38,394 nucleotides of DNA from Clostridia bacterium (lineage in GTDB: Bacteria; Bacillota; Clostridia; UMGS1840; HGM11507), in NCBI GenBank assembly GCA_045654005.1, contig JAZOMN010000067.1, positions 1 to 38,394 of the forward strand. Reading direction: 5' to 3'. This document shows positions 2,171-26,529 of this stretch, piece by piece; the first letter of the stretch is position 1, and each line of letters starts with the position of its first letter. Made by a program: the position numbers and the translations under genes. The notes beneath the pieces were generated by a model. That model was not told the origin of the DNA. It saw only the letters and a list, made by a program, of their open reading frames with translations, and did no database searches.

Positions 2171-2372
2171 TCAAGCCGAGCTTGAAATCAGCGATATAAA
2201 TTCCTGACGGAATTTGCGATATGTACTTCGTACGCGATATATCTTTGATGCGATATGTTGCCTTGCGGTAACGAGAAAGGAATTTATATTATATCGCAAC
2301 GGAGTAAAACAGAGTTATATCGCATTTGAGTATGATGAAAATATATCGCACGAGCGTGAGCGAGTATATCAC
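2171..2372. repeat. array of GCGATAT heptamers (4 forward, 4 reverse) interleaved with short unique palindromes
   Basis: Forward GCGATAT at 2191, 2216, 2234 and 2250. Reverse ATATCGC at 2291, 2317 and 2343, and ATATCAC at 2366. Forward spacers are palindromes: aaattcc-tgac-ggaattt, gtac-ttc-gtac, atc-ttt-gat, gttgcc-ttgc-ggtaac. The array is preceded by tcaagc-cga-gcttga. Confidence 0.9.
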
Positions 2373-17687: not shown

Positions 17688-18764
17688 ATGAAAGTTTTAT
17701 ATCTTATAAATCACGCCGGAAAAGCGGGAACTGAAAAATATGTATATAATTTAGTTAAAGCATATAAAGATAAAAAATGCGAATGTTATTTTGCTTATAA
17801 TGAAGAAGGGCTTTTGCTTAATCAGATGAAAGAGGAAAATGTTCCTTGCTTTCAGTTTGAAATGAAGCATCCTTTTGATATTTCTGCCGCAAAAAAATTT
17901 GCAGGTTACTTAAAAGAAAATGAGATTGATGTTGTTCACGCTCAATATCCAAGAGAGAATTATATCGCTCTTTTATCAAAACTTTTTTATAAAAAAACTA
18001 AAGTTGTTTTCACATCTCATCTTACTATAAAAACTAACCTTTTATGGAAGATAACAAATAAATTTATGACTCCTTTTAACCATAAGATAATTTCAGTATG
18101 CAATCACGGAAAAGAACTTCTTATAGGAAACGGCGTTAAGAAAGATAAAATTGAAGTTATTTTTAATGCAATGACTATTGATAAAGAAGAAACAAATTCT
18201 ACAATAAGAGAAGAACTTTCACTTAAAGATGAATTTTTAATAGTAACTTTGGCAAGATACCATTTTGCAAAAGGTCTTCCATTCTTGGTTGATTCTGTGA
18301 AAAAACTAAAAGAGATTGCAACCCGTCCGTTTAAAGTTTTAATAGTGGGCGATGGGGAACTGTGGGACGAAATAACCGCAAAAATTAAAAATGAGGGGCT
18401 TTCGGATACTATTTTGCAGTTAGGTTTCAGAAAAGATACTGATAATATTTTATCAGGATGCGACCTTTTTGTTAACTCTGCAAGTTGTTTAGAAGCATTG
18501 TCTTTTGCTATGCTTGAAGCATTATCCAAAAAACTTCCTTTGGTTGCTACAAATGTGGGCGGAAATTCAGATATAGTAAACCCTGATACCGACTGCGGAA
18601 TAATTGTTGATTATCCTGATTGTGATGAGATGGCAAACGCAATAAATACTTTAATGAACGATAAAGAAATGTATGAAAGAATGTCACAAAATGCAATAAA
18701 AGCGATAGAGGGAAGATTTAACTACGACAAGATGCTGGACAAAACGTTTGATATGTATATTTGA
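17688..18764 (+). CDS. GT4-family glycosyltransferase
   Basis: The ORF track starts at 17670, but the ATG at 17688 (MKVLYLINHAGKAGTEKY) fits the usual GT4 N-terminus. C-terminal EALSFAMLEALSKKLPLVATNVGGNSDIV motif. Confidence 0.85.
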   Translation: MKVLYLINHAGKAGTEKYVYNLVKAYKDKKCECYFAYNEEGLLLNQMKEENVPCFQFEMKHPFDISAAKKFAGYLKENEIDVVHAQYPRENYIALLSKLFYKKTKVVFTSHLTIKTNLLWKITNKFMTPFNHKIISVCNHGKELLIGNGVKKDKIEVIFNAMTIDKEETNSTIREELSLKDEFLIVTLARYHFAKGLPFLVDSVKKLKEIATRPFKVLIVGDGELWDEITAKIKNEGLSDTILQLGFRKDTDNILSGCDLFVNSASCLEALSFAMLEALSKKLPLVATNVGGNSDIVNPDTDCGIIVDYPDCDEMANAINTLMNDKEMYERMSQNAIKAIEGRFNYDKMLDKTFDMYI

Positions 18765-18891
18765 CCTTAAGGTCAAATGTGATATGTTGTCATACGACAA
18801 CTCGATATATTTACGGCGTAAATTCGATATGTTTTCGGGCAATTCGTGAACTGCCCCTATAAAACGCGATATGTTTGTTCTTTGAACAAAC
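18748..18891 (+). repeat. second YGATAT heptamer array with perfect palindromic spacers (3' end and 3' UTR of the GT4 gene)
   Basis: TTGATAT 18748, GTGATAT 18779, TCGATAT 18802, TCGATAT 18824, GCGATAT 18866. Palindromes: atttgacc-ttaa-ggtcaaat, gttgtc-atac-gacaac, atttac-ggc-gtaaat, gtttt..gggca..tgccc..aaaac, gtttgttc-ttt-gaacaaac. Confidence 0.9.
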
Positions 18892-18898
18892 GTTAAGG

Positions 18899-18933
18899 AC
18901 GCAAAAGATACCATTCGGTCTTTTGCGTTTTTG
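18899..18933 (+). terminator. terminator of the GT4 gene transcript
   Basis: 10-bp stem acgcaaaaga (18899-18908) / tcttttgcgt (18919-18928) followed by a T-run. Confidence 0.7.
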
Positions 18934-18944
18934 TATGATTGCTC

Positions 18945-18982
18945 AAAATGGACGCAAAAGGGACAGACCCCATTGCGTCCAT
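18945..18982 (-). terminator. terminator of the minus-strand three-gene envelope operon
   Basis: 10-bp stem atggacgcaa (18948-18957) / ttgcgtccat (18973-18982), loop aagggacagacccca. An A4 run on the plus strand gives a T-run on the minus strand. Confidence 0.6.
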
Positions 18983-19018
18983 ATTTATAGTTTTAACATA
19001 ATGTTAAATATTATATTT

Positions 19019-21274: not shown

Positions 21275-21526
21275 GTGATAAATTTGAATATAGGTGAAGC
21301 TACAAAATTAAGGATACTTGAACTTTGTAACGAAAATGCGATGACAGTTAATAAACTTGCAACTATAAGCGGAATAACACAATCCACATTGAGTAATATT
21401 GTAGGTGGAAGAAATAACAGTGCGACAATTTCTACAATAAAAAAATTATGTGACGGATTAAATGTTTCAATCAGATATTTTTTTGAATCCTCATTATTTG
21501 ATGATTTGGAACAAGAAATAAAATAG
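21275..21526 (+). CDS. XRE-family helix-turn-helix transcriptional regulator
   Basis: 83-aa ORF with a typical HTH_3 core (MTVNKLATISGITQSTLSNIVGGRNNSATISTIKKLCDGLNVSIRYFF). The start is ambiguous: GTG at 21275, or TTG at 21284, which lies 7 nt after GAGGTG. Confidence 0.8.
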   Translation: MINLNIGEATKLRILELCNENAMTVNKLATISGITQSTLSNIVGGRNNSATISTIKKLCDGLNVSIRYFFESSLFDDLEQEIK

Positions 21527-21560
21527 AGTAAAATATGATATTATTTATTTGGTGATTGTA

Positions 21561-21761
21561 ATGATTTCGTATAAACCATTTTATGATACGCTTTTTAAAA
21601 AAGGCATAACTGAATATAATTTAATATTCAAGCAAGGTTTTTCAGCAAATACTCTTCATCGTATAAAAAGAGGAGAGGCTATTAGTACCAAAACGCTTGA
21701 TTCTCTTTGTTATGCTCTGGATTGCGAAGTTTATGATATAATAAAATTTGAAAAAGAATAA
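21561..21761 (+). CDS. small Cro/CI-type helix-turn-helix protein
   Basis: 66 aa from the ATG at 21561 (the track starts at TTG 21549). The pattern FSANTLHRIKRGEAISTKTLDSLCYALDCEVYDII is typical of short HTH_26/Cro-like regulators. Confidence 0.7.
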   Translation: MISYKPFYDTLFKKGITEYNLIFKQGFSANTLHRIKRGEAISTKTLDSLCYALDCEVYDIIKFEKE

Positions 21762-21881: not shown

Positions 21882-21899
21882 TGCGAGAGGTGATTGAAT

Positions 21900-22166
21900 A
21901 TGTTAGCAGAAATCAGAGGGCGTTCTCAAATTACCATACCTGCAGAAATTATAAAAAAATTAGGAATTTCGGAAGGCGATAAATTTGACATTGTTGAAAA
22001 AGACGGAGGAATATTTCTTTGTCCTGTTATAGTATATCCCAAAGATAAACTATTAAAAATTGCAAAATTGATAAAGGATTCTGAAATTGAACTTTCTGCA
22101 CAGGAAAGTTTTGATACAGTTGAGGATATGTTTGCGGATATGGGGATAAATATAGACAATGTATAA
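21900..22166 (+). CDS. AbrB/MazE/SpoVT-family antitoxin
   Basis: SpoVT/AbrB swapped-hairpin motif (RGRSQITIPAEIIKKLGISEGDKFDIVEKDGGIFLCPV). The ATG at 21900 is better spaced from the GAGAGG RBS than the track's TTG at 21894. Overlaps the toxin gene by 8 nt. Confidence 0.8.
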   Translation: MLAEIRGRSQITIPAEIIKKLGISEGDKFDIVEKDGGIFLCPVIVYPKDKLLKIAKLIKDSEIELSAQESFDTVEDMFADMGINIDNV

Positions 22167-22422
22167 ACTAAAATATACCAAGGAATTTGAGAAAAATCTA
22201 AAATTATTGACAAGTCGGGAACAAAAATTAGTTGCAAATAAATTAAAACTATTTGTTCAAAATCCATTTTATCCGTCTTTGCGTACAAAAAAGGTACAAG
22301 GGCTTGATAATGTTTTTGAAATGAGTGTCAATATGGATATTCGTATCCTGTGGAAATATGAAAACGGAATTATTGTTTTACTTCTTGATGTTGGACATCA
22401 TAAAAATATATTAGGACTGTAA
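22159..22422 (+). CDS. RelE/ParE-superfamily type II toxin (mRNA interferase-like)
   Basis: 87-aa ORF with the YafQ/RelE-like pattern (YKLKYTKEFEKNLKLL...LRTKKVQGLDNVFEMSVNMDIRILWKYENGIIVLLLDVGHH). Translationally coupled to the antitoxin. Confidence 0.8.
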   Translation: MYKLKYTKEFEKNLKLLTSREQKLVANKLKLFVQNPFYPSLRTKKVQGLDNVFEMSVNMDIRILWKYENGIIVLLLDVGHHKNILGL

Positions 22423-25853: not shown

Positions 25854-25930
25854 CGAGGCGTAGCTCAGTTTGGTAGAGTGCTTGGTTTGGGACCAAGATG
25901 CCGCAGGTTCAAGTCCTGTCGCCTCGACCA
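25854..25930 (+). tRNA. tRNA-Pro (anticodon UGG)
   Basis: Hand-folded cloverleaf. Acceptor cgaggcg/cgcctcg, anticodon stem cttgg/ccaag with loop ttTGGga, T-loop ttcaagt, encoded CCA. Confidence 0.9.
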
Positions 25931-25949
25931 TCTTTTTTAAAAAAAGGTG

Positions 25950-25978
25950 TTGACAAATCGGTGATAATATTTTATAAT
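25950..25978 (+). promoter_or_regulatory. perfect-consensus sigma-A promoter for tRNA-Thr/Tyr
   Basis: TTGACA (25950-25955), 17 nt, TATAAT (25973-25978). Begins 20 nt after tRNA-Pro. Confidence 0.75.
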
Positions 25979-26003
25979 TAGAATGTTGTTACCAAAATAT
26001 TTT

Positions 26004-26079
26004 GCTGGTGTAGCTCAATTGGTAGAGCAGCTGATTTGTAATCAGCAGGTCGCGGGTTCGAGTCCCATCACCAGCTCCA
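26004..26079 (+). tRNA. tRNA-Thr (anticodon UGU)
   Basis: Hand-folded cloverleaf. Acceptor gctggtg/caccagc, anticodon stem gctga/tcagc with loop ttTGTaa, T-loop ttcgagt (one C-A mismatch in the T stem), encoded CCA. Confidence 0.9.
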
Positions 26080-26164
26080 GGGAGAGTTCCCGAGTGGCCA
26101 AAGGGGGCAGACTGTAAATCTGTTGGCTCCGCCTTCGGTGGTTCGAATCCACCCTCTCCCACCA
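26080..26164 (+). tRNA. tRNA-Tyr (anticodon GUA), class II long variable arm
   Basis: Acceptor gggagag/ctctccc, anticodon loop ctGTAaa, long variable arm (ggctccgccttcggtgg region), T-loop ttcgaat, encoded CCA. Starts immediately after the CCA of tRNA-Thr. Confidence 0.9.
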
Positions 26165-26170
26165 GAAAAA

Positions 26171-26195
26171 AGCACTTCTTTGGAAGTGCTTTTTT
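26171..26195 (+). terminator. terminator of the tRNA Thr-Tyr transcript
   Basis: Stem agcacttc (26171-26178) / gaagtgct (26183-26190), loop tttg, T6. Preceded by A6. Confidence 0.8.
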
Positions 26196-26196
26196 C

Positions 26197-26322
26197 AGTT
26201 ATATTTGCCTTACGGCAAGTTATGAGTTCAGATTGCTTCGCCAGTTATGAATTGACTTCGTCAATGTTTGTTTTTTTGAGGGCAAATATATCATAACTGC
26301 AAACGAAGTTTGCATCATAACT
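26197..26322. repeat. AGTTATGA / TCATAACT motif array with palindromic spacers, between two terminators downstream of the tRNA cluster
   Basis: AGTTAT 26197, AGTTATGA 26218 and 26243, TCATAACT 26291 and 26315. Palindromes: ttgcc-ttac-ggcaa, attgac-ttc-gtcaat, gcaaac-gaa-gtttgc. Outer complementarity atttgcc (26203-26209) / ggcaaat (26281-26287). Confidence 0.85.
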
Positions 26323-26368
26323 CTAAACTTTCAACTTGCATCTAAACCATTCGGCTCTTCCAGAAAAA

Positions 26369-26395
26369 AGACTATTCTTATGAATAGTCTTTTTT
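26369..26395 (+). terminator. second terminator hairpin, about 170 nt after the first
   Basis: Stem agactattc (26369-26377) / gaatagtct (26382-26390), loop ttat, T6. A6 upstream, so it could be bidirectional. Confidence 0.7.
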
Positions 26396-26455
26396 CAATG
26401 AAATTTGCCTGCAGGTAGCGAGATATTTCATTAAACCCACATCCATATATTACAT

Positions 26456-26485
26456 TTGAGAATATGCACATATAAATGTTATAAT
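26456..26485 (+). promoter_or_regulatory. candidate extended -10 promoter of the LysM-CAP gene
   Basis: TGtTATAAT at 26477-26485 with a weak -35 ttgaga at 26456-26461. Confidence 0.4.
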
Positions 26486-26529
26486 ATATAAGGCAACCAT
26501 AAAATTATACTAACTCAGGAGGTCTTATA

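Follow-up and report, generated by a model that had tools for sequence, protein, structure and literature searches.

A word-hairpin array behind a clostridial tRNA-Tyr gene as a probable diverged, ORF-less copy of a Gut-1-like module

The closest described relative of the element analysed here is the Gut-1 RNA motif, described in 2010 from gut metagenomes; its authors regard it, on account of covariation, as probably a non-coding RNA rather than a cis-regulatory one (Weinberg et al. 2010, PMC2864571). It has stood in Rfam since 2010 (RF01706, labelled ‘Gene; sRNA’) as a gut-only motif without known organism, partner or function. Its consensus consists of CA followed by four words, (G)UGAAAU or GUGAUAU, with three variable hairpins between them.

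Other known systems share parts of this design. REP/BIME and REPIN elements of enterobacteria and pseudomonads are, like the arrays considered below, extragenic and multi-copy, lie at gene ends with hairpins in direct and inverted orientation and are perhaps mobilised in trans. REP units are built on one palindrome genome-wide, which has a GTAG foot, and they go together with RAYT transposases. In our arrays the palindromes are all different, a short linear word is constant within an array but varies between arrays of one genome, and the protein that accompanies them is a four-helix bundle. In the TRAP-binding (G/U)AG repeats and the GGA arrays of CsrB/RsmZ, short single-stranded words between hairpins are presented to an oligomeric protein. 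Our arrays would resemble these RNAs and the Avd-binding DGR RNA in presenting words or structure to a protein, but they also carry reverse-complement words able to pair with the forward words, which known sponges lack. The 23S rRNA IVS are likewise small selfish-looking insertions in unrelated host contexts, with a hairpin non-coding part and a four-helix-bundle gene; those bearing a PF05635/S23p ORF, known for instance from Leptospira and Coxiella, occupy helix 25 or 45 of 23S rRNA, carry the ORF in the stem-loop and are removed by RNase III (PMC4990558). Our arrays differ from them in being intergenic, in having the ORF 3′ of the whole array and in their word-hairpin grammar, array 3 itself carrying no ORF.

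The array in question (array 3) spans, with its flanking hairpins, positions 26165-26396 on the plus strand of the stretch of 38,394 bases that was analysed (the window; Table 1). The original prediction, made from the letters alone, had placed forward copies of a constant word at 26197, 26218 and 26243 and inverted copies at 26291 and 26315. All five are present: the copy at 26197, AGTTAT(AT), is degenerate with respect to the exact AGTTATGA of the other two forward sites, and both inverted copies are exact TCATAACT. Counted on both strands, the 8-mer AGTTATGA/TCATAACT has exactly 4 copies in the window, 1.86 being expected, and all of them fall within the 105 nt of 26218-26322 in the order F,F,R,R; at least 4 copies anywhere in the window are reached in 8 of 100 shuffles. 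The three perfect palindromes listed there were also recovered, ttgcc-ttac-ggcaa at 26205-26218, attgac-ttc-gtcaat at 26251-26265 and gcaaac-gaa-gtttgc at 26299-26313, while the complementarity of atttgcc with ggcaaat proved longer than claimed, extending over 9 bp between atatttgcc (26201-26209) and ggcaaatat (26281-26289). Word spacing is irregular (21, 25, 48 and 24 nt). As had been stated, the segment holds no ORF: two mechanical ORFs only, of 57 and 46 aa, overlap it and show no sign of coding.

Table 1. Coordinates of array 3, its flanks and the two further arrays in the window.
Feature	Positions	Strand	Basis or remark
Array 1	2172..2372	+	P0, GCGATAT four times with hairpins, centre GGAATTTAT, ATATCGC three times plus ATATCAC
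Array 2	18750..18935	+	GATATGT five times, forward only, small hairpin after each; terminator at end, its loop with ACCATTCGG
tRNA-Pro, tRNA-Thr and tRNA-Tyr, directly upstream of array 3	25854-26164
P0 / T1, hairpin of A-tract, 14-bp stem and T-tract directly after tRNA-Tyr	26165..26196	+	terminator scan and fold
W1, first forward word AGTTATAT	26197..26204	+	ancestral word form; last two bases shared with segment ‘a’
a + H1, hairpin ttgcc-ttac-ggcaa	26201..26218	+	ATAT plus 5′ arm (26201-26209) complementary to centre C
W2, forward word AGTTATGA	26218..26225	+	exact 8-mer count
Spacer 2, gttcagat + tgcttcgc + c, decayed H2	26226..26242	+	comparison with L209 by eye
W3, forward word AGTTATGA	26243..26250	+	exact 8-mer count
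H3, attgac-ttc-gtcaat, TTC loop	26251..26265	+	TTC is the commonest left-block loop of the family
T-rich linker, forward block to centre	26266..26280	+	sequence
C, centre ggcaaatat	26281..26289	+	reverse complement of 26201-26209
W′1, reverse word TCATAACT	26291..26298	+	exact 8-mer count
H5, gcaaac-gaa-gtttgc, GAA loop	26299..26313	+	GAA is the commonest right-block loop of the family
W′2, reverse word TCATAACT	26315..26322	+	exact 8-mer count
Tail, 3′ end ATCTAAACCATTCGGCTCTTCCA	26323..26362	+	nearly identical in L045 and L012
T2, second hairpin of A-tract, stem (15 bp) and T-tract	26363..26396	+	fold and alignment with L007

The hairpin T1 sits where the P0 hairpin of the family stands, ahead of the first word. 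T2 repeats the T1 frame CCAGAAAAAAG...CTTTTTTCAA and is missing from the terminator-scan list because its T-run lies within the stem; in the alignment with the array-free locus L007, its counterpart is a single terminator directly abutting AATAAAATTTGC. The gene downstream encodes a LysM-CAP (SafA/YkwD-like) protein. Exact-protein look-ups with the LysM-CAP and ABC ATPase proteins of the window led to no other contig, and since the closest LysM-CAP homologue is 88% identical, a close-strain alignment of array 3 was not possible.

More than 113 non-redundant relatives were retrieved, their sources being metagenomes of rumen, camel and human gut as well as two phage contigs (L098 and L187). They share one grammar. 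A leading hairpin P0 is followed by 3-5 forward units, in each of which a 7-nt word precedes a variable hairpin; then come a centre whose sequence is complementary to unit one, 2-5 reverse units in which the reverse-complement word is joined to a GNA-loop hairpin, and a tail. All family counts are grammar-based and were made in Python. The most frequent word number in metagenomic arrays is 4 forward and 4 reverse. A family with interchangeable signature words had been suggested, and it exists: GCGATAT, GTTATAT/GTTATGA, GTGATGT, AATGATG, AGCTAAAT and GUGAAAU all serve as words, and loci L029, L014 and L038 show the identical grammar with other words. Forward and reverse words match in each subfamily (GCGATAT/ATATCGC, GTTATAT/ATATAAC, GTGATGT/ACATCAC, AGCTAAA/TTTAGCT), as they do in array 3 (AGTTATGA twice, TCATAACT twice), where 26201-26209 pairs with 26281-26289 at 9 of 9 positions. 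In array 3 and in all complete members the centre directly precedes the first reverse word. Several word types coexist within one genome, and units resemble one another within an array. P0 ends at most 6 nt before the first word in 80 of 109 members; in 69 of the 80 arrays having it P0 is not terminator-like, which points to co-transcription of the array with the upstream gene.

By its words and shared segments, array 3 is a member of the GTTATAT subfamily. It has AGTTATATTTGCC and GGCAAATAT in common with loci L209, L243, L246 and L259, and its word has changed in both blocks together, from GTTATAT to GTTATGA in the inner forward copies and from ATATAAC to TCATAAC in both reverse copies. Compared by eye, TGCTTCGC in its second spacer matches the H2 hairpin TGCTTTCGCA of L209 plus an 8-nt insertion. 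Its tail resembles a degenerate tRNA T-arm/acceptor 3′ end.

The Gut-1 consensus corresponds exactly to the forward block of this family, and the Rfam model of 77 nt represents the forward block of one word subfamily only. This model aligns full-length to our forward blocks, with 31.3 bits for the canonical GCGATAT array of L217, 29.2 bits (E = 5e-4) for array 1 and 15.9 bits (E = 0.65, model positions 1-77) for array 3, all below the gathering score of 50, the match of array 3 alone not being significant; at the gathering threshold, Rfam gives no match in the window and none among 10 family loci. Set against the Gut-1 layout (CA, RUGAnAU four times, three hairpins), array 3 reads CA, GUUAUAU, hairpin, GUUAUGA, decayed spacer, GUUAUGA, hairpin. 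The grammar is alike, but there are 3 words and not 4, two clean hairpins and a different word sequence. The Gut-1 seed member BAAZ01025322 runs tRNA-CCA, terminator, AGUUAUAUUCGCC..., GCGAAUAUA, AUAUCAC three times, ...ACAUUCGGCUUU; in parallel, array 3 runs tRNA-CCA, terminator, AGUUAUAUUUGCC..., GGCAAAUAU, reverse words, ...ACCAUUCGGCUCUU. The two begin alike and their tails are similar; L209-type arrays bridge them and provide sequence continuity with accepted Gut-1 members. In the published seed alignment, the flanks include the leading hairpin, the centre and reverse words. The reverse block, the complement between segment a and centre C (a:C), the occurrence in phages and the linkage to PF05635 go beyond the Gut-1 description in the part of the published text available to us, and the literature on the words, on S23p/IVS proteins and on PF05635 yielded no description of such arrays beyond Gut-1. 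Judged from its sequence, array 3 is a diverged, Gut-1-like copy of a widespread gut-bacterial non-coding module.

The 134-nt core of array 3 folds better than shuffled sequences, and the two strands do so alike (z = -4.3 on the plus and -4.2 on the minus strand). Across the family, symmetric hairpins make up 155 of 174 distinct left spacers and 105 of 131 distinct right ones. The TTC loop noticed in the motif-forward orientation holds family-wide, left-block loops being T-N-C and right-block loops G-N-A. In right-block stems, G.A (51) and G.T (15) mismatches far outnumber A.C (3) and C.T (1), while those of left-block stems slightly favour the opposite strand (A.C 11 and C.T 8 versus G.T 7 and G.A 3), and the loops of the left block correspond to stable GNA loops on the other strand; RNA of the plus strand alone therefore does not account for this block. 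The 9-bp a:C complement is perfect in 37 of 75 arrays, compared with 60 of 1946 controls; it covaries and is also present in arrays of other sequence. Hairpin stems of homologues are wholly different in sequence with pairing kept, and in orthologous arrays the words are invariant while stems change by compensation. Moreover, the first base of the forward word covaries with the last base of the reverse word (GGAA with xTTC), largely in one lineage. These comparisons show hairpins and long-range complement kept by compensatory change across the family. The idea of a structured element gains from them, stem compensation, a:C covariation and right-block G.A/G.T mismatches all supporting a folding constraint on a single strand, and it gains as well from the alignment of the Gut-1 covariance model to the forward block.

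The family is large and multi-copy within genomes and phages, and it occupies varied intergenic contexts: 5′ leaders running into a ribosome-binding site, 3′ ends, phage late operons and tandem copies. Three arrays occur in the 38-kb window, three in the 10.6-kb contig L187 and three in L204. Near-identical copies are found within contigs (L187, L204, L209/L246/L259), and in the phages L098 and L187, which are related to each other, the late operons contain 2-3 copies at differing positions. The upstream gene is co-directional with the array in 75 cases and opposed in 15. L007 is an orthologous site without array, as are most orthologous loci upstream of the LysM-CAP gene. A MITE or transposon remnant would be expected to have terminal inverted repeats, a target-site duplication of fixed length and near-identical copies. 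Flanking direct repeats of at least 10 nt, variable in length, accompany 8 of 59 arrays and 7 of 400 controls; beyond these repeats in a minority of cases, no transposase, mobility enzyme or mechanism was found for the arrays. Among viral sequences, no GenBank phage matched a canonical array by blastn, a scan for AGTTATGA..AGTTATGA..TCATAACT returned two unrelated loci only, and one for three GCGATAT was swamped by coding tandem repeats, except for L098 and L187.

PF05635 proteins, which comprise the 23S rRNA IVS proteins and relatives of Avd, number many thousands, and we know of none characterised outside DGRs. Complete arrays lie immediately 5′ of PF05635/TIGR02436 (Avd/IVS-family) genes, which start ~15 nt after the last reverse word and encode four-helix-bundle products of ~115-120 aa. 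All 14 PF05635 genes in the 2.2 Mb of fetched DNA adjoin an array; only ~11% of the arrays have the gene, ~89% being orphan. A clade A protein is found behind GCGATAT arrays and a clade B protein (45% identical) behind GTGATGT arrays, the latter at three independent loci. Protein clade tracks array word type, a covariation which could reflect co-descent of a composite element and not recognition. The flanks of these loci hold unrelated housekeeping genes, with no reverse transcriptase and no TR/VR pair. Avd, a PF05635-like pentameric barrel, binds structured RNA in the DGR ribonucleoprotein (10.1101/2023.10.23.563531), and its homology with PF05635 has been noted (PMC10053308). We tentatively raise the possibility, to which we give clearly less than an even chance, that Gut-1-like arrays are cognate ligands of stand-alone PF05635 pentamers, each clade reading its own 7-nt word, which an array offers 4-5 times between hairpins. 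If so, array and gene would form a self-propagating cassette, orphan arrays, including the three in the window, would be trans-acting targets, and through forward-only arrays that abut ribosome-binding sites the protein would control adjacent genes; an RNA motif orphan since 2010 and a very large protein family would thereby acquire a function. A tblastn search of the window with the four-helix-bundle protein gave no match, and the gene downstream encodes the LysM-CAP protein, which makes array 3 an orphan copy.

Taken as a whole, the explanation to which we give somewhat better than an even chance is that array 3 is a diverged, shortened, ORF-less copy of a Gut-1-like word-hairpin array. It would have been inserted behind the tRNA-Tyr terminator and have partly decayed there, and would not constitute an independent sRNA gene. 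We suppose that such an array acts as nucleic acid in single-stranded form, in the simplest case as RNA made by read-through from the gene upstream. Pairing of forward with reverse words would then give a ladder whose rungs are short helices and from which hairpins project sideways; as a single-stranded platform, the word repeats may be the ligand of a pentameric four-helix-bundle protein, and the module would spread or persist selfishly, inserted beside hairpins where genes end. Against this explanation, T1 should stop most read-through into array 3, and both strands fold equally well. Gene-less, behind a strong terminator and partly decayed, array 3 is itself most likely a remnant or orphan copy that does little or nothing by itself. 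Of the original prediction, the observation of the array and of a motif family stands; its locus-specific reading as a read-through trailer or as a stand-alone sRNA boxed by its own terminators is not supported, because no two-hexamer sigma-70-like promoter was found inside, T1 is strong, contexts are varied and orthologous sites are mostly array-free, the element behaving as an inserted module in many copies.

Could the segment nevertheless encode a stand-alone trans-acting sRNA of ~130-200 nt, with its own promoter between T1 and T2 and the words as seeds or protein sites? T2 could end such a transcript, Weinberg et al. (PMC2864571) place Gut-1 among likely non-coding and not cis-regulatory RNAs, and plus-strand reverse-block hairpins show the GNA/GNRA loops and tandem G.A pairs typical of RNA. 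We consider it rather improbable: a two-hexamer sigma-70-like promoter was not found in or just before the array on either strand, relatives occur in leaders running into a ribosome-binding site, in phage operons and as tandem copies, P0 is mostly not terminator-like (69 of 80, above), and array 3, besides being partly decayed, falls short of its relatives in length. We give as little credit to a generic extragenic hairpin cluster in the manner of REP/BIME, serving as terminator back-up, insulator or barrier to 3′ exonucleases after the tRNA operon, with the words as by-products of duplication. Nothing in such a cluster would call for words that stay invariant and are matched in reverse, for an a:C complement that covaries or for fixed unit numbers; this reading leaves the tight, word-specific linkage to PF05635 unexplained, and two good terminators flank array 3 already. 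It would account for the excess of co-directional upstream genes (75 versus 15), the frequent adjacency to terminators, the many stable small hairpins and the likeness of units within an array, which local duplication predicts.

A double-stranded DNA site, either iterons or arm-type sites or an attL/attR remnant of an integrative element in the tRNA 3′ end, with the words as oriented binding sites flanking a core, appears very doubtful. Its appeal lies in the adjoining tRNA gene, in the frame CCAGAAAAAAG...CTTTTTTC present on both sides, in a weak match of the tail to tRNA 3′ ends (~12 of 23 positions, counted by eye) and in the succession of forward then reverse sites, which resembles the P and P′ arms of a lambda-type attP. 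This is countered by the irregular spacing and by spacers filled with hairpins conserved as structure, by asymmetric G.A/G.T mismatches pointing to single strands, by the coexistence of several word types in one genome and by phages with 2-3 copies inside late operons, and no integrase gene was found near array 3 among the window ORFs. As for the possibility that AT-rich words and palindromes came together by chance in an intergenic region of low GC content, the genome has 33% G+C, and short palindromes and 8-mers do recur by chance, as the 8 shuffles in 100 illustrate. But the F,F,R,R order of all four copies inside 105 nt, with palindromic spacers, a relaxed array detector that finds 8 regions in the real sequences (every array described here included) versus 1-3 in shuffles, and above all a homologous architecture at more than 100 loci effectively refute chance, whose probability we regard as negligible.

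Several known elements were considered and set aside. An IVS element is discarded for an intergenic array without ORF in a window without rRNA, and REP/BIME for differing palindromes and a constant part that is a linear 7-8-mer, no RAYT gene being present among the window ORFs scanned (part of the set). CRISPR arrays require direct repeats of 23-50 nt, unique non-palindromic spacers of similar length and one orientation, none of which applies to array 3, with repeats of 7-8 nt, palindromes of 9-17 nt as spacers and both orientations present. For LytTR/VirR-box direct repeats, one unit only resembles CCAGTTAT, spacing is irregular and other arrays have other words. A C/D-box or K-turn, evoked by the L014 word AUGAUGA...CUGA, is absent from other arrays, and array 3 has U at the required sheared G. 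No consensus match by eye was seen for integron attC, XerCD dif, DnaA boxes or parS. Transposon excision footprints (target duplication plus P-nucleotide palindrome) would explain private words only and leave unexplained the reverse words, the a:C complement, the conserved hairpin types and the protein linkage. In the array centre, a divergent promoter is evoked by extended -10-like strings on the minus strand, with no two-hexamer site.

Returning to Gut-1, these results recast it as one of the word variants within a far larger superfamily, present in Clostridia as well as in phages of Clostridia, and they extend the motif by a reverse block and by a long-range complement that covaries. Leaders of PF05635 genes are what complete arrays constitute, with word type tracking protein clade, which offers a first functional lead; superfamily, reverse block, PF05635 leaders and clade tracking together make function directly testable. 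For the array 3 locus itself little follows, since this copy is probably an orphan in decay. Annotators of genomes should mask arrays of this kind as repeat modules and avoid calling them locus-specific sRNAs or CRISPR-like arrays.

Two other arrays lie in the window. The parallel that had been drawn with 2171-2372 is correct, array 1 having the same architecture; it lies in the leader of a creatininase-family gene and has L260 as orthologue. The second array, which had only been implied, was located at 18750-18900 with its five GATATGT words, and the 9-mer ACCATTCGG of the array 3 tail is found again in the loop of the terminator that follows it.

The repeat cluster behind the tRNA genes (array 3, see the table) reads as originally described, with the same short constant motifs, or words, and the same palindromes; the complement between atttgcc and ggcaaat is present and even longer than noted, 9 bp. 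The 8-mer of array 3 has four copies in the whole window, both strands counted, all of them inside the array. While the core folds better than its shuffled versions, it does so to the same degree on either strand (z = -4.3 and -4.2), so that folding energy alone shows only DNA rich in inverted repeats.

Features of the three window arrays and of arrays and modules at comparison loci (L-handles), with window coordinates unless a locus is named
Feature	Position	Remarks
tRNA-Pro, tRNA-Thr, tRNA-Tyr	25854-26164	upstream of T1
T1, strong intrinsic terminator	26165-26196	terminator scan
First forward word AGTTATAT	26197	directly after T1
Hairpin ttgcc-ttac-ggcaa		between AGTTATAT (26197) and AGTTATGA (26218)
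Second forward word AGTTATGA	26218	then 17-nt spacer
Third forward word AGTTATGA	26243	
Hairpin attgac-ttc-gtcaat, then T-rich linker		between 26243 word and 26281 centre
Centre ggcaaatat	26281-26289	
First reverse word TCATAACT	26291	
Hairpin gcaaac-gaa-gtttgc		between reverse words at 26291 and 26315
Second reverse word TCATAACT	26315	then 40-nt tail
T2, second hairpin	26363-26396	fold
Array 1	2172-2372	GCGATAT x4, small hairpin after each, then ATATCGC x3 and ATATCAC
Array 2	18750-18900	GATATGT x5, forward only, terminator at end
L014, AATGATG/ACATCAT		after tRNA-Cys and terminator; ends in ttccagaaaaaag and terminator, as array 3
L029, AGCTAAA/TTTAGCT		after tRNA-Asn and terminator
L038, GCGATAT array		upstream of LysM-CAP homologue
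Heptamer module	L045 1395-1500; L012 (-) 3700-3630; L029 470-505; L187 10240-10360; L201 (-) 3800-3720	

Four rumen contigs (L209, L243, L246 and L259) carry GTTATAT/ATATAAC arrays whose start AGTTATATTTGCC and centre GGCAAATAT recur without change in array 3, which places array 3 in this subfamily. Compared to the L209 type, its inner pair of forward words has GA for AT and, in concert, both of its reverse words have TC for AT; it counts 3+2 units versus 4+3 in these relatives, and one of its hairpins is broken by an 8-nt insertion. The array-free state is provided by the aligned contig L007, where only one terminator comes after a tRNA, abutting AATAAAATTTGC directly, and the sequence 3' of this terminator is the one that follows T2 in the window. 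According to this alignment, T1, the array and its tail together make up an inserted segment, with one copy of the frame CCAGAAAAAAG...CTTTTTTCAA at either border. An independent small RNA boxed by terminators, as had also been proposed, is unsupported. Partly decayed, preceded by a strong terminator and lacking a partner gene within the window, array 3 most likely represents an orphan remnant. The locus itself is therefore of modest interest.

The tail of array 3, ATCTAAACCATTCGGCTCTTCCA, is almost identical at loci L045 and L012, and array 2 is followed by a terminator whose loop again contains the tail 9-mer ACCATTCGG. The stretch ATCTAAACCATTCGG(C/T)TCTTCCA (window 26340-26362; L045 1360-1385; L012 minus strand, 3755-3733) is nearly identical in these three genomes; one frame reads SKPFGSS, in which the sole difference (GGC/GGT) is synonymous, and there is a loose likeness to the tRNA T-arm/acceptor 3' end. 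The tail may be the start of a tiny ORF, an att-like core or part of an RNA.

The idea of a family of elements with interchangeable signature words is borne out by arrays with other words and the same grammar in the window, where a k-mer scan singled out arrays 1 and 2, and in relatives, phages and metagenomes. A viral-contig scan for three GCGATAT copies returned mostly noise, together with two phage contigs whose arrays are collinear to array 1, with identical first unit. Within the head-morphogenesis operon, these arrays occupy different spacers between the terminase, portal, Prp protease, scaffold and major head protein genes. Using the first unit as pattern, at least 113 non-redundant arrays could be parsed from rumen, camel and human gut metagenomes, and further word types are present in the same rumen contigs. 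Among the matches listed, the modal composition is four forward and four reverse words (26 arrays), followed by 4+5 (15), 4+3 (11) and forward-only forms (about one third); symmetric hairpins occupy 155 of 174 distinct left spacers and 105 of 131 right ones, with T-N-C loops in the left block (TTC, TGC, TAC, TGAC, TTAC, TTGC), which are the complement of stable loops, and G-N-A or A-rich loops in the right one (GAA, AAA, GCAA, GTCA, GCA, GTA). In the same matches, a hairpin (P0) ends within 6 nt of the first word in 80 of 109 arrays (terminator-like in 11 of these 80). Genes upstream run in the direction of the array in 75 of these matches and against it in 15, while genes downstream show no preference. 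Array 3 is a real member of this large, conserved, multi-copy family of modular arrays.

Array blocks can be rearranged, as in phage contig L098 (1400-1600), where the order is reversed: ATATCGA x4 with GNA-loop hairpins, TCGATAT x4, GAGA and the portal-gene ribosome-binding site. Right after several array tails stands a second module, a long hairpin built of repeated words, in which tandem heptamers (AATAGTG, AGTTGAT or GTTATGA) are followed 40-60 nt on by inverted copies.

In every two-block array of the window and these relatives, the end of the first word and the 5' arm of the first hairpin form a perfect 9-bp complement of the segment preceding the first reverse word. These pairs differ per array (atatttgcc/ggcaaatat, ataaattcc/ggaatttat, taaattcgc/gcgaattta, gtgtttgcc/ggcaaacac) and in the GCGATAT subfamily the centre follows the first hairpin arm (ATAAATTCC with GGAATTTAT; ATAAATCCC with GGGATTTAT; ATAAATCCT with AGGATTTAT). 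The complement is perfect (9/9) in 37 of 75 arrays versus 60 of 1946 random pairings of arrays with a different arm. Whatever the subfamily, the reverse word always complements its forward word exactly. Variants at the first base of forward words also go along with variants at the last base of reverse ones (GGAA with xTTC, GGGG with CCCC); the register that fits best is W4:W'2, W3:W'3 and W2:W'4 (forward:reverse word), with a signal mostly from one lineage. Two species have orthologous arrays 3' of an HI0933-like gene, with unchanged words but with hairpins that differ by compensation (e.g. acGc...gCgt vs acAc...gTgt). Family hairpins and the long-range complement are maintained by compensatory change.

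Stem mismatches bear on which strand folds. Among the matches listed, those of the right block are G.A (51) and G.T (15) rather than A.C (3) and C.T (1), and a hairpin with tandem G.A pairs, ACGAGC...GCGAGT, is recurrent; this excess is evidence for single-strand folding, with the plus strand as the one that folds in the right block. In the left block the tendency is weakly opposite (A.C 11 and C.T 8 versus G.T 7 and G.A 3 among the matches listed), for which a simple plus-strand RNA model gives no explanation.

At gathering thresholds, no Rfam family was found in the window or at ten loci of the array family. At relaxed thresholds, the Gut-1 model (RF01706) aligned end-to-end with forward blocks, namely that of locus L217 (31.3 bits, E = 1.4e-4), array 1 (29.2 bits, E = 5e-4) and array 3 (15.9 bits, E = 0.65). 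Weinberg et al. (2010, PMC2864571) reported the motif from human-gut metagenomes only and considered it a likely non-coding RNA with no known function. The Gut-1 consensus, CA-UGAAAU-hairpin-GUGAAAU-hairpin-GUGAAAU-hairpin-GUGAAAU, follows the array grammar, yet with another word. With flanks added, the seed alignment contains leading hairpins, centres and reverse words, and one member (tRNA-CCA, terminator, AGUUAUAUUCGCC..., GCGAAUAUA, AUAUCAC x3, ...ACAUUCGGCUUU) parallels the layout of array 3. Array 3 can thus be classed as a divergent element of Gut-1 type; scoring below the curated threshold, it is no formal Rfam member. Another seed contig, BAAZ01000130.1 (2104-3060), holds four Gut-1 copies at 240-nt intervals; whole arrays can therefore be tandemly repeated.

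The valuable lead is at family level, in the link of Gut-1-like arrays with PF05635 proteins. In 12 parsed arrays among the matches listed, an ORF of 114-120 aa starts about 15 nt past the last reverse word and encodes a PF05635/TIGR02436 four-helix-bundle protein ('23S rRNA intervening sequence protein' family), whose closest solved structure, 2RLD, is a five-chain entry. In 2.2 Mb of retrieved DNA, tblastn identified 14 PF05635 genes, all 14 adjoining an array. Clade A proteins (more than 7,700 database relatives) lie behind GCGATAT arrays and clade B proteins, 45% identical to clade A, behind GTGATGT/ACATCAC arrays in three independent cases (L206, L333-340 and L341). In its complete form, the array is coupled with a PF05635 gene that matches its word. 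Genes flanking these cassettes are unrelated housekeeping ones (threonine synthase, HI0933-like flavoprotein, RNA methyltransferase, metallophosphoesterase), with no reverse transcriptase found among them. A homologue of PF05635 proteins is Avd of diversity-generating retroelements (PMC10053308), a barrel contacting structured RNA in the DGR ribonucleoprotein (10.1101/2023.10.23.563531). PF05635 genes are also known from selfish 23S rRNA intervening sequences, which carry them as cargo (PMC4990558), and from cas operons, into which they are inserted (PMC3936711). At L335 and L336 (1-521), one clade B cassette has a gene for a large serine recombinase (Resolvase, Recombinase, Zn_ribbon_recom) directly upstream, which may be coincidence or hint at residence in a mobile element.

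We suppose that the array acts as a single-stranded nucleic acid, most simply an RNA co-transcribed with the upstream gene. Pairing of forward with reverse words would give 7-bp helices arranged like a ladder, with hairpins at the sides; in the alternative fold, the first unit would pair with the centre. A pentameric PF05635 protein could read the repeated words, and array and gene would persist as a selfish cassette inserted beside hairpins at gene ends. Some forward-only arrays run straight into the ribosome-binding sites of diverse genes, an arrangement suggesting possible regulation in trans.

The host lineage consists of uncultured low-GC Clostridia of gut and rumen. Relatives of the LysM-CAP gene (SafA/YkwD-like, spore-coat) downstream of array 3 are at best only 88% identical, and an array is absent upstream of it at most of 80 related loci and present at three, each with its own word. 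Outside the array, the upstream motif CCATATATTACATTTGA...TATGTTATA(G/A)T (window 26420-26529; L001-L045) is strongly conserved across relatives of 70-88% protein identity and looks like a promoter, possibly of sporulation-sigma type. Upstream of another homologue (L070, 220-1960) lies a CRISPR-like array with a period of about 66-80 nt, its repeat containing GGGCGACC and showing internal dyad symmetry. Elsewhere in the window, two successive hairpins 3' of array 2 (18898-18990) share the stem GACGCAAAAG/CTTTTGCGTC with different loops, another repeated stem with variable interior. By eye, two small HTH ORFs (21275-21761 and 21894-22422) are XRE-like, and an AbrB/MazE-like and RelE/ParE-like ORF pair upstream of a ClpB-like gene is a putative type II toxin-antitoxin system.
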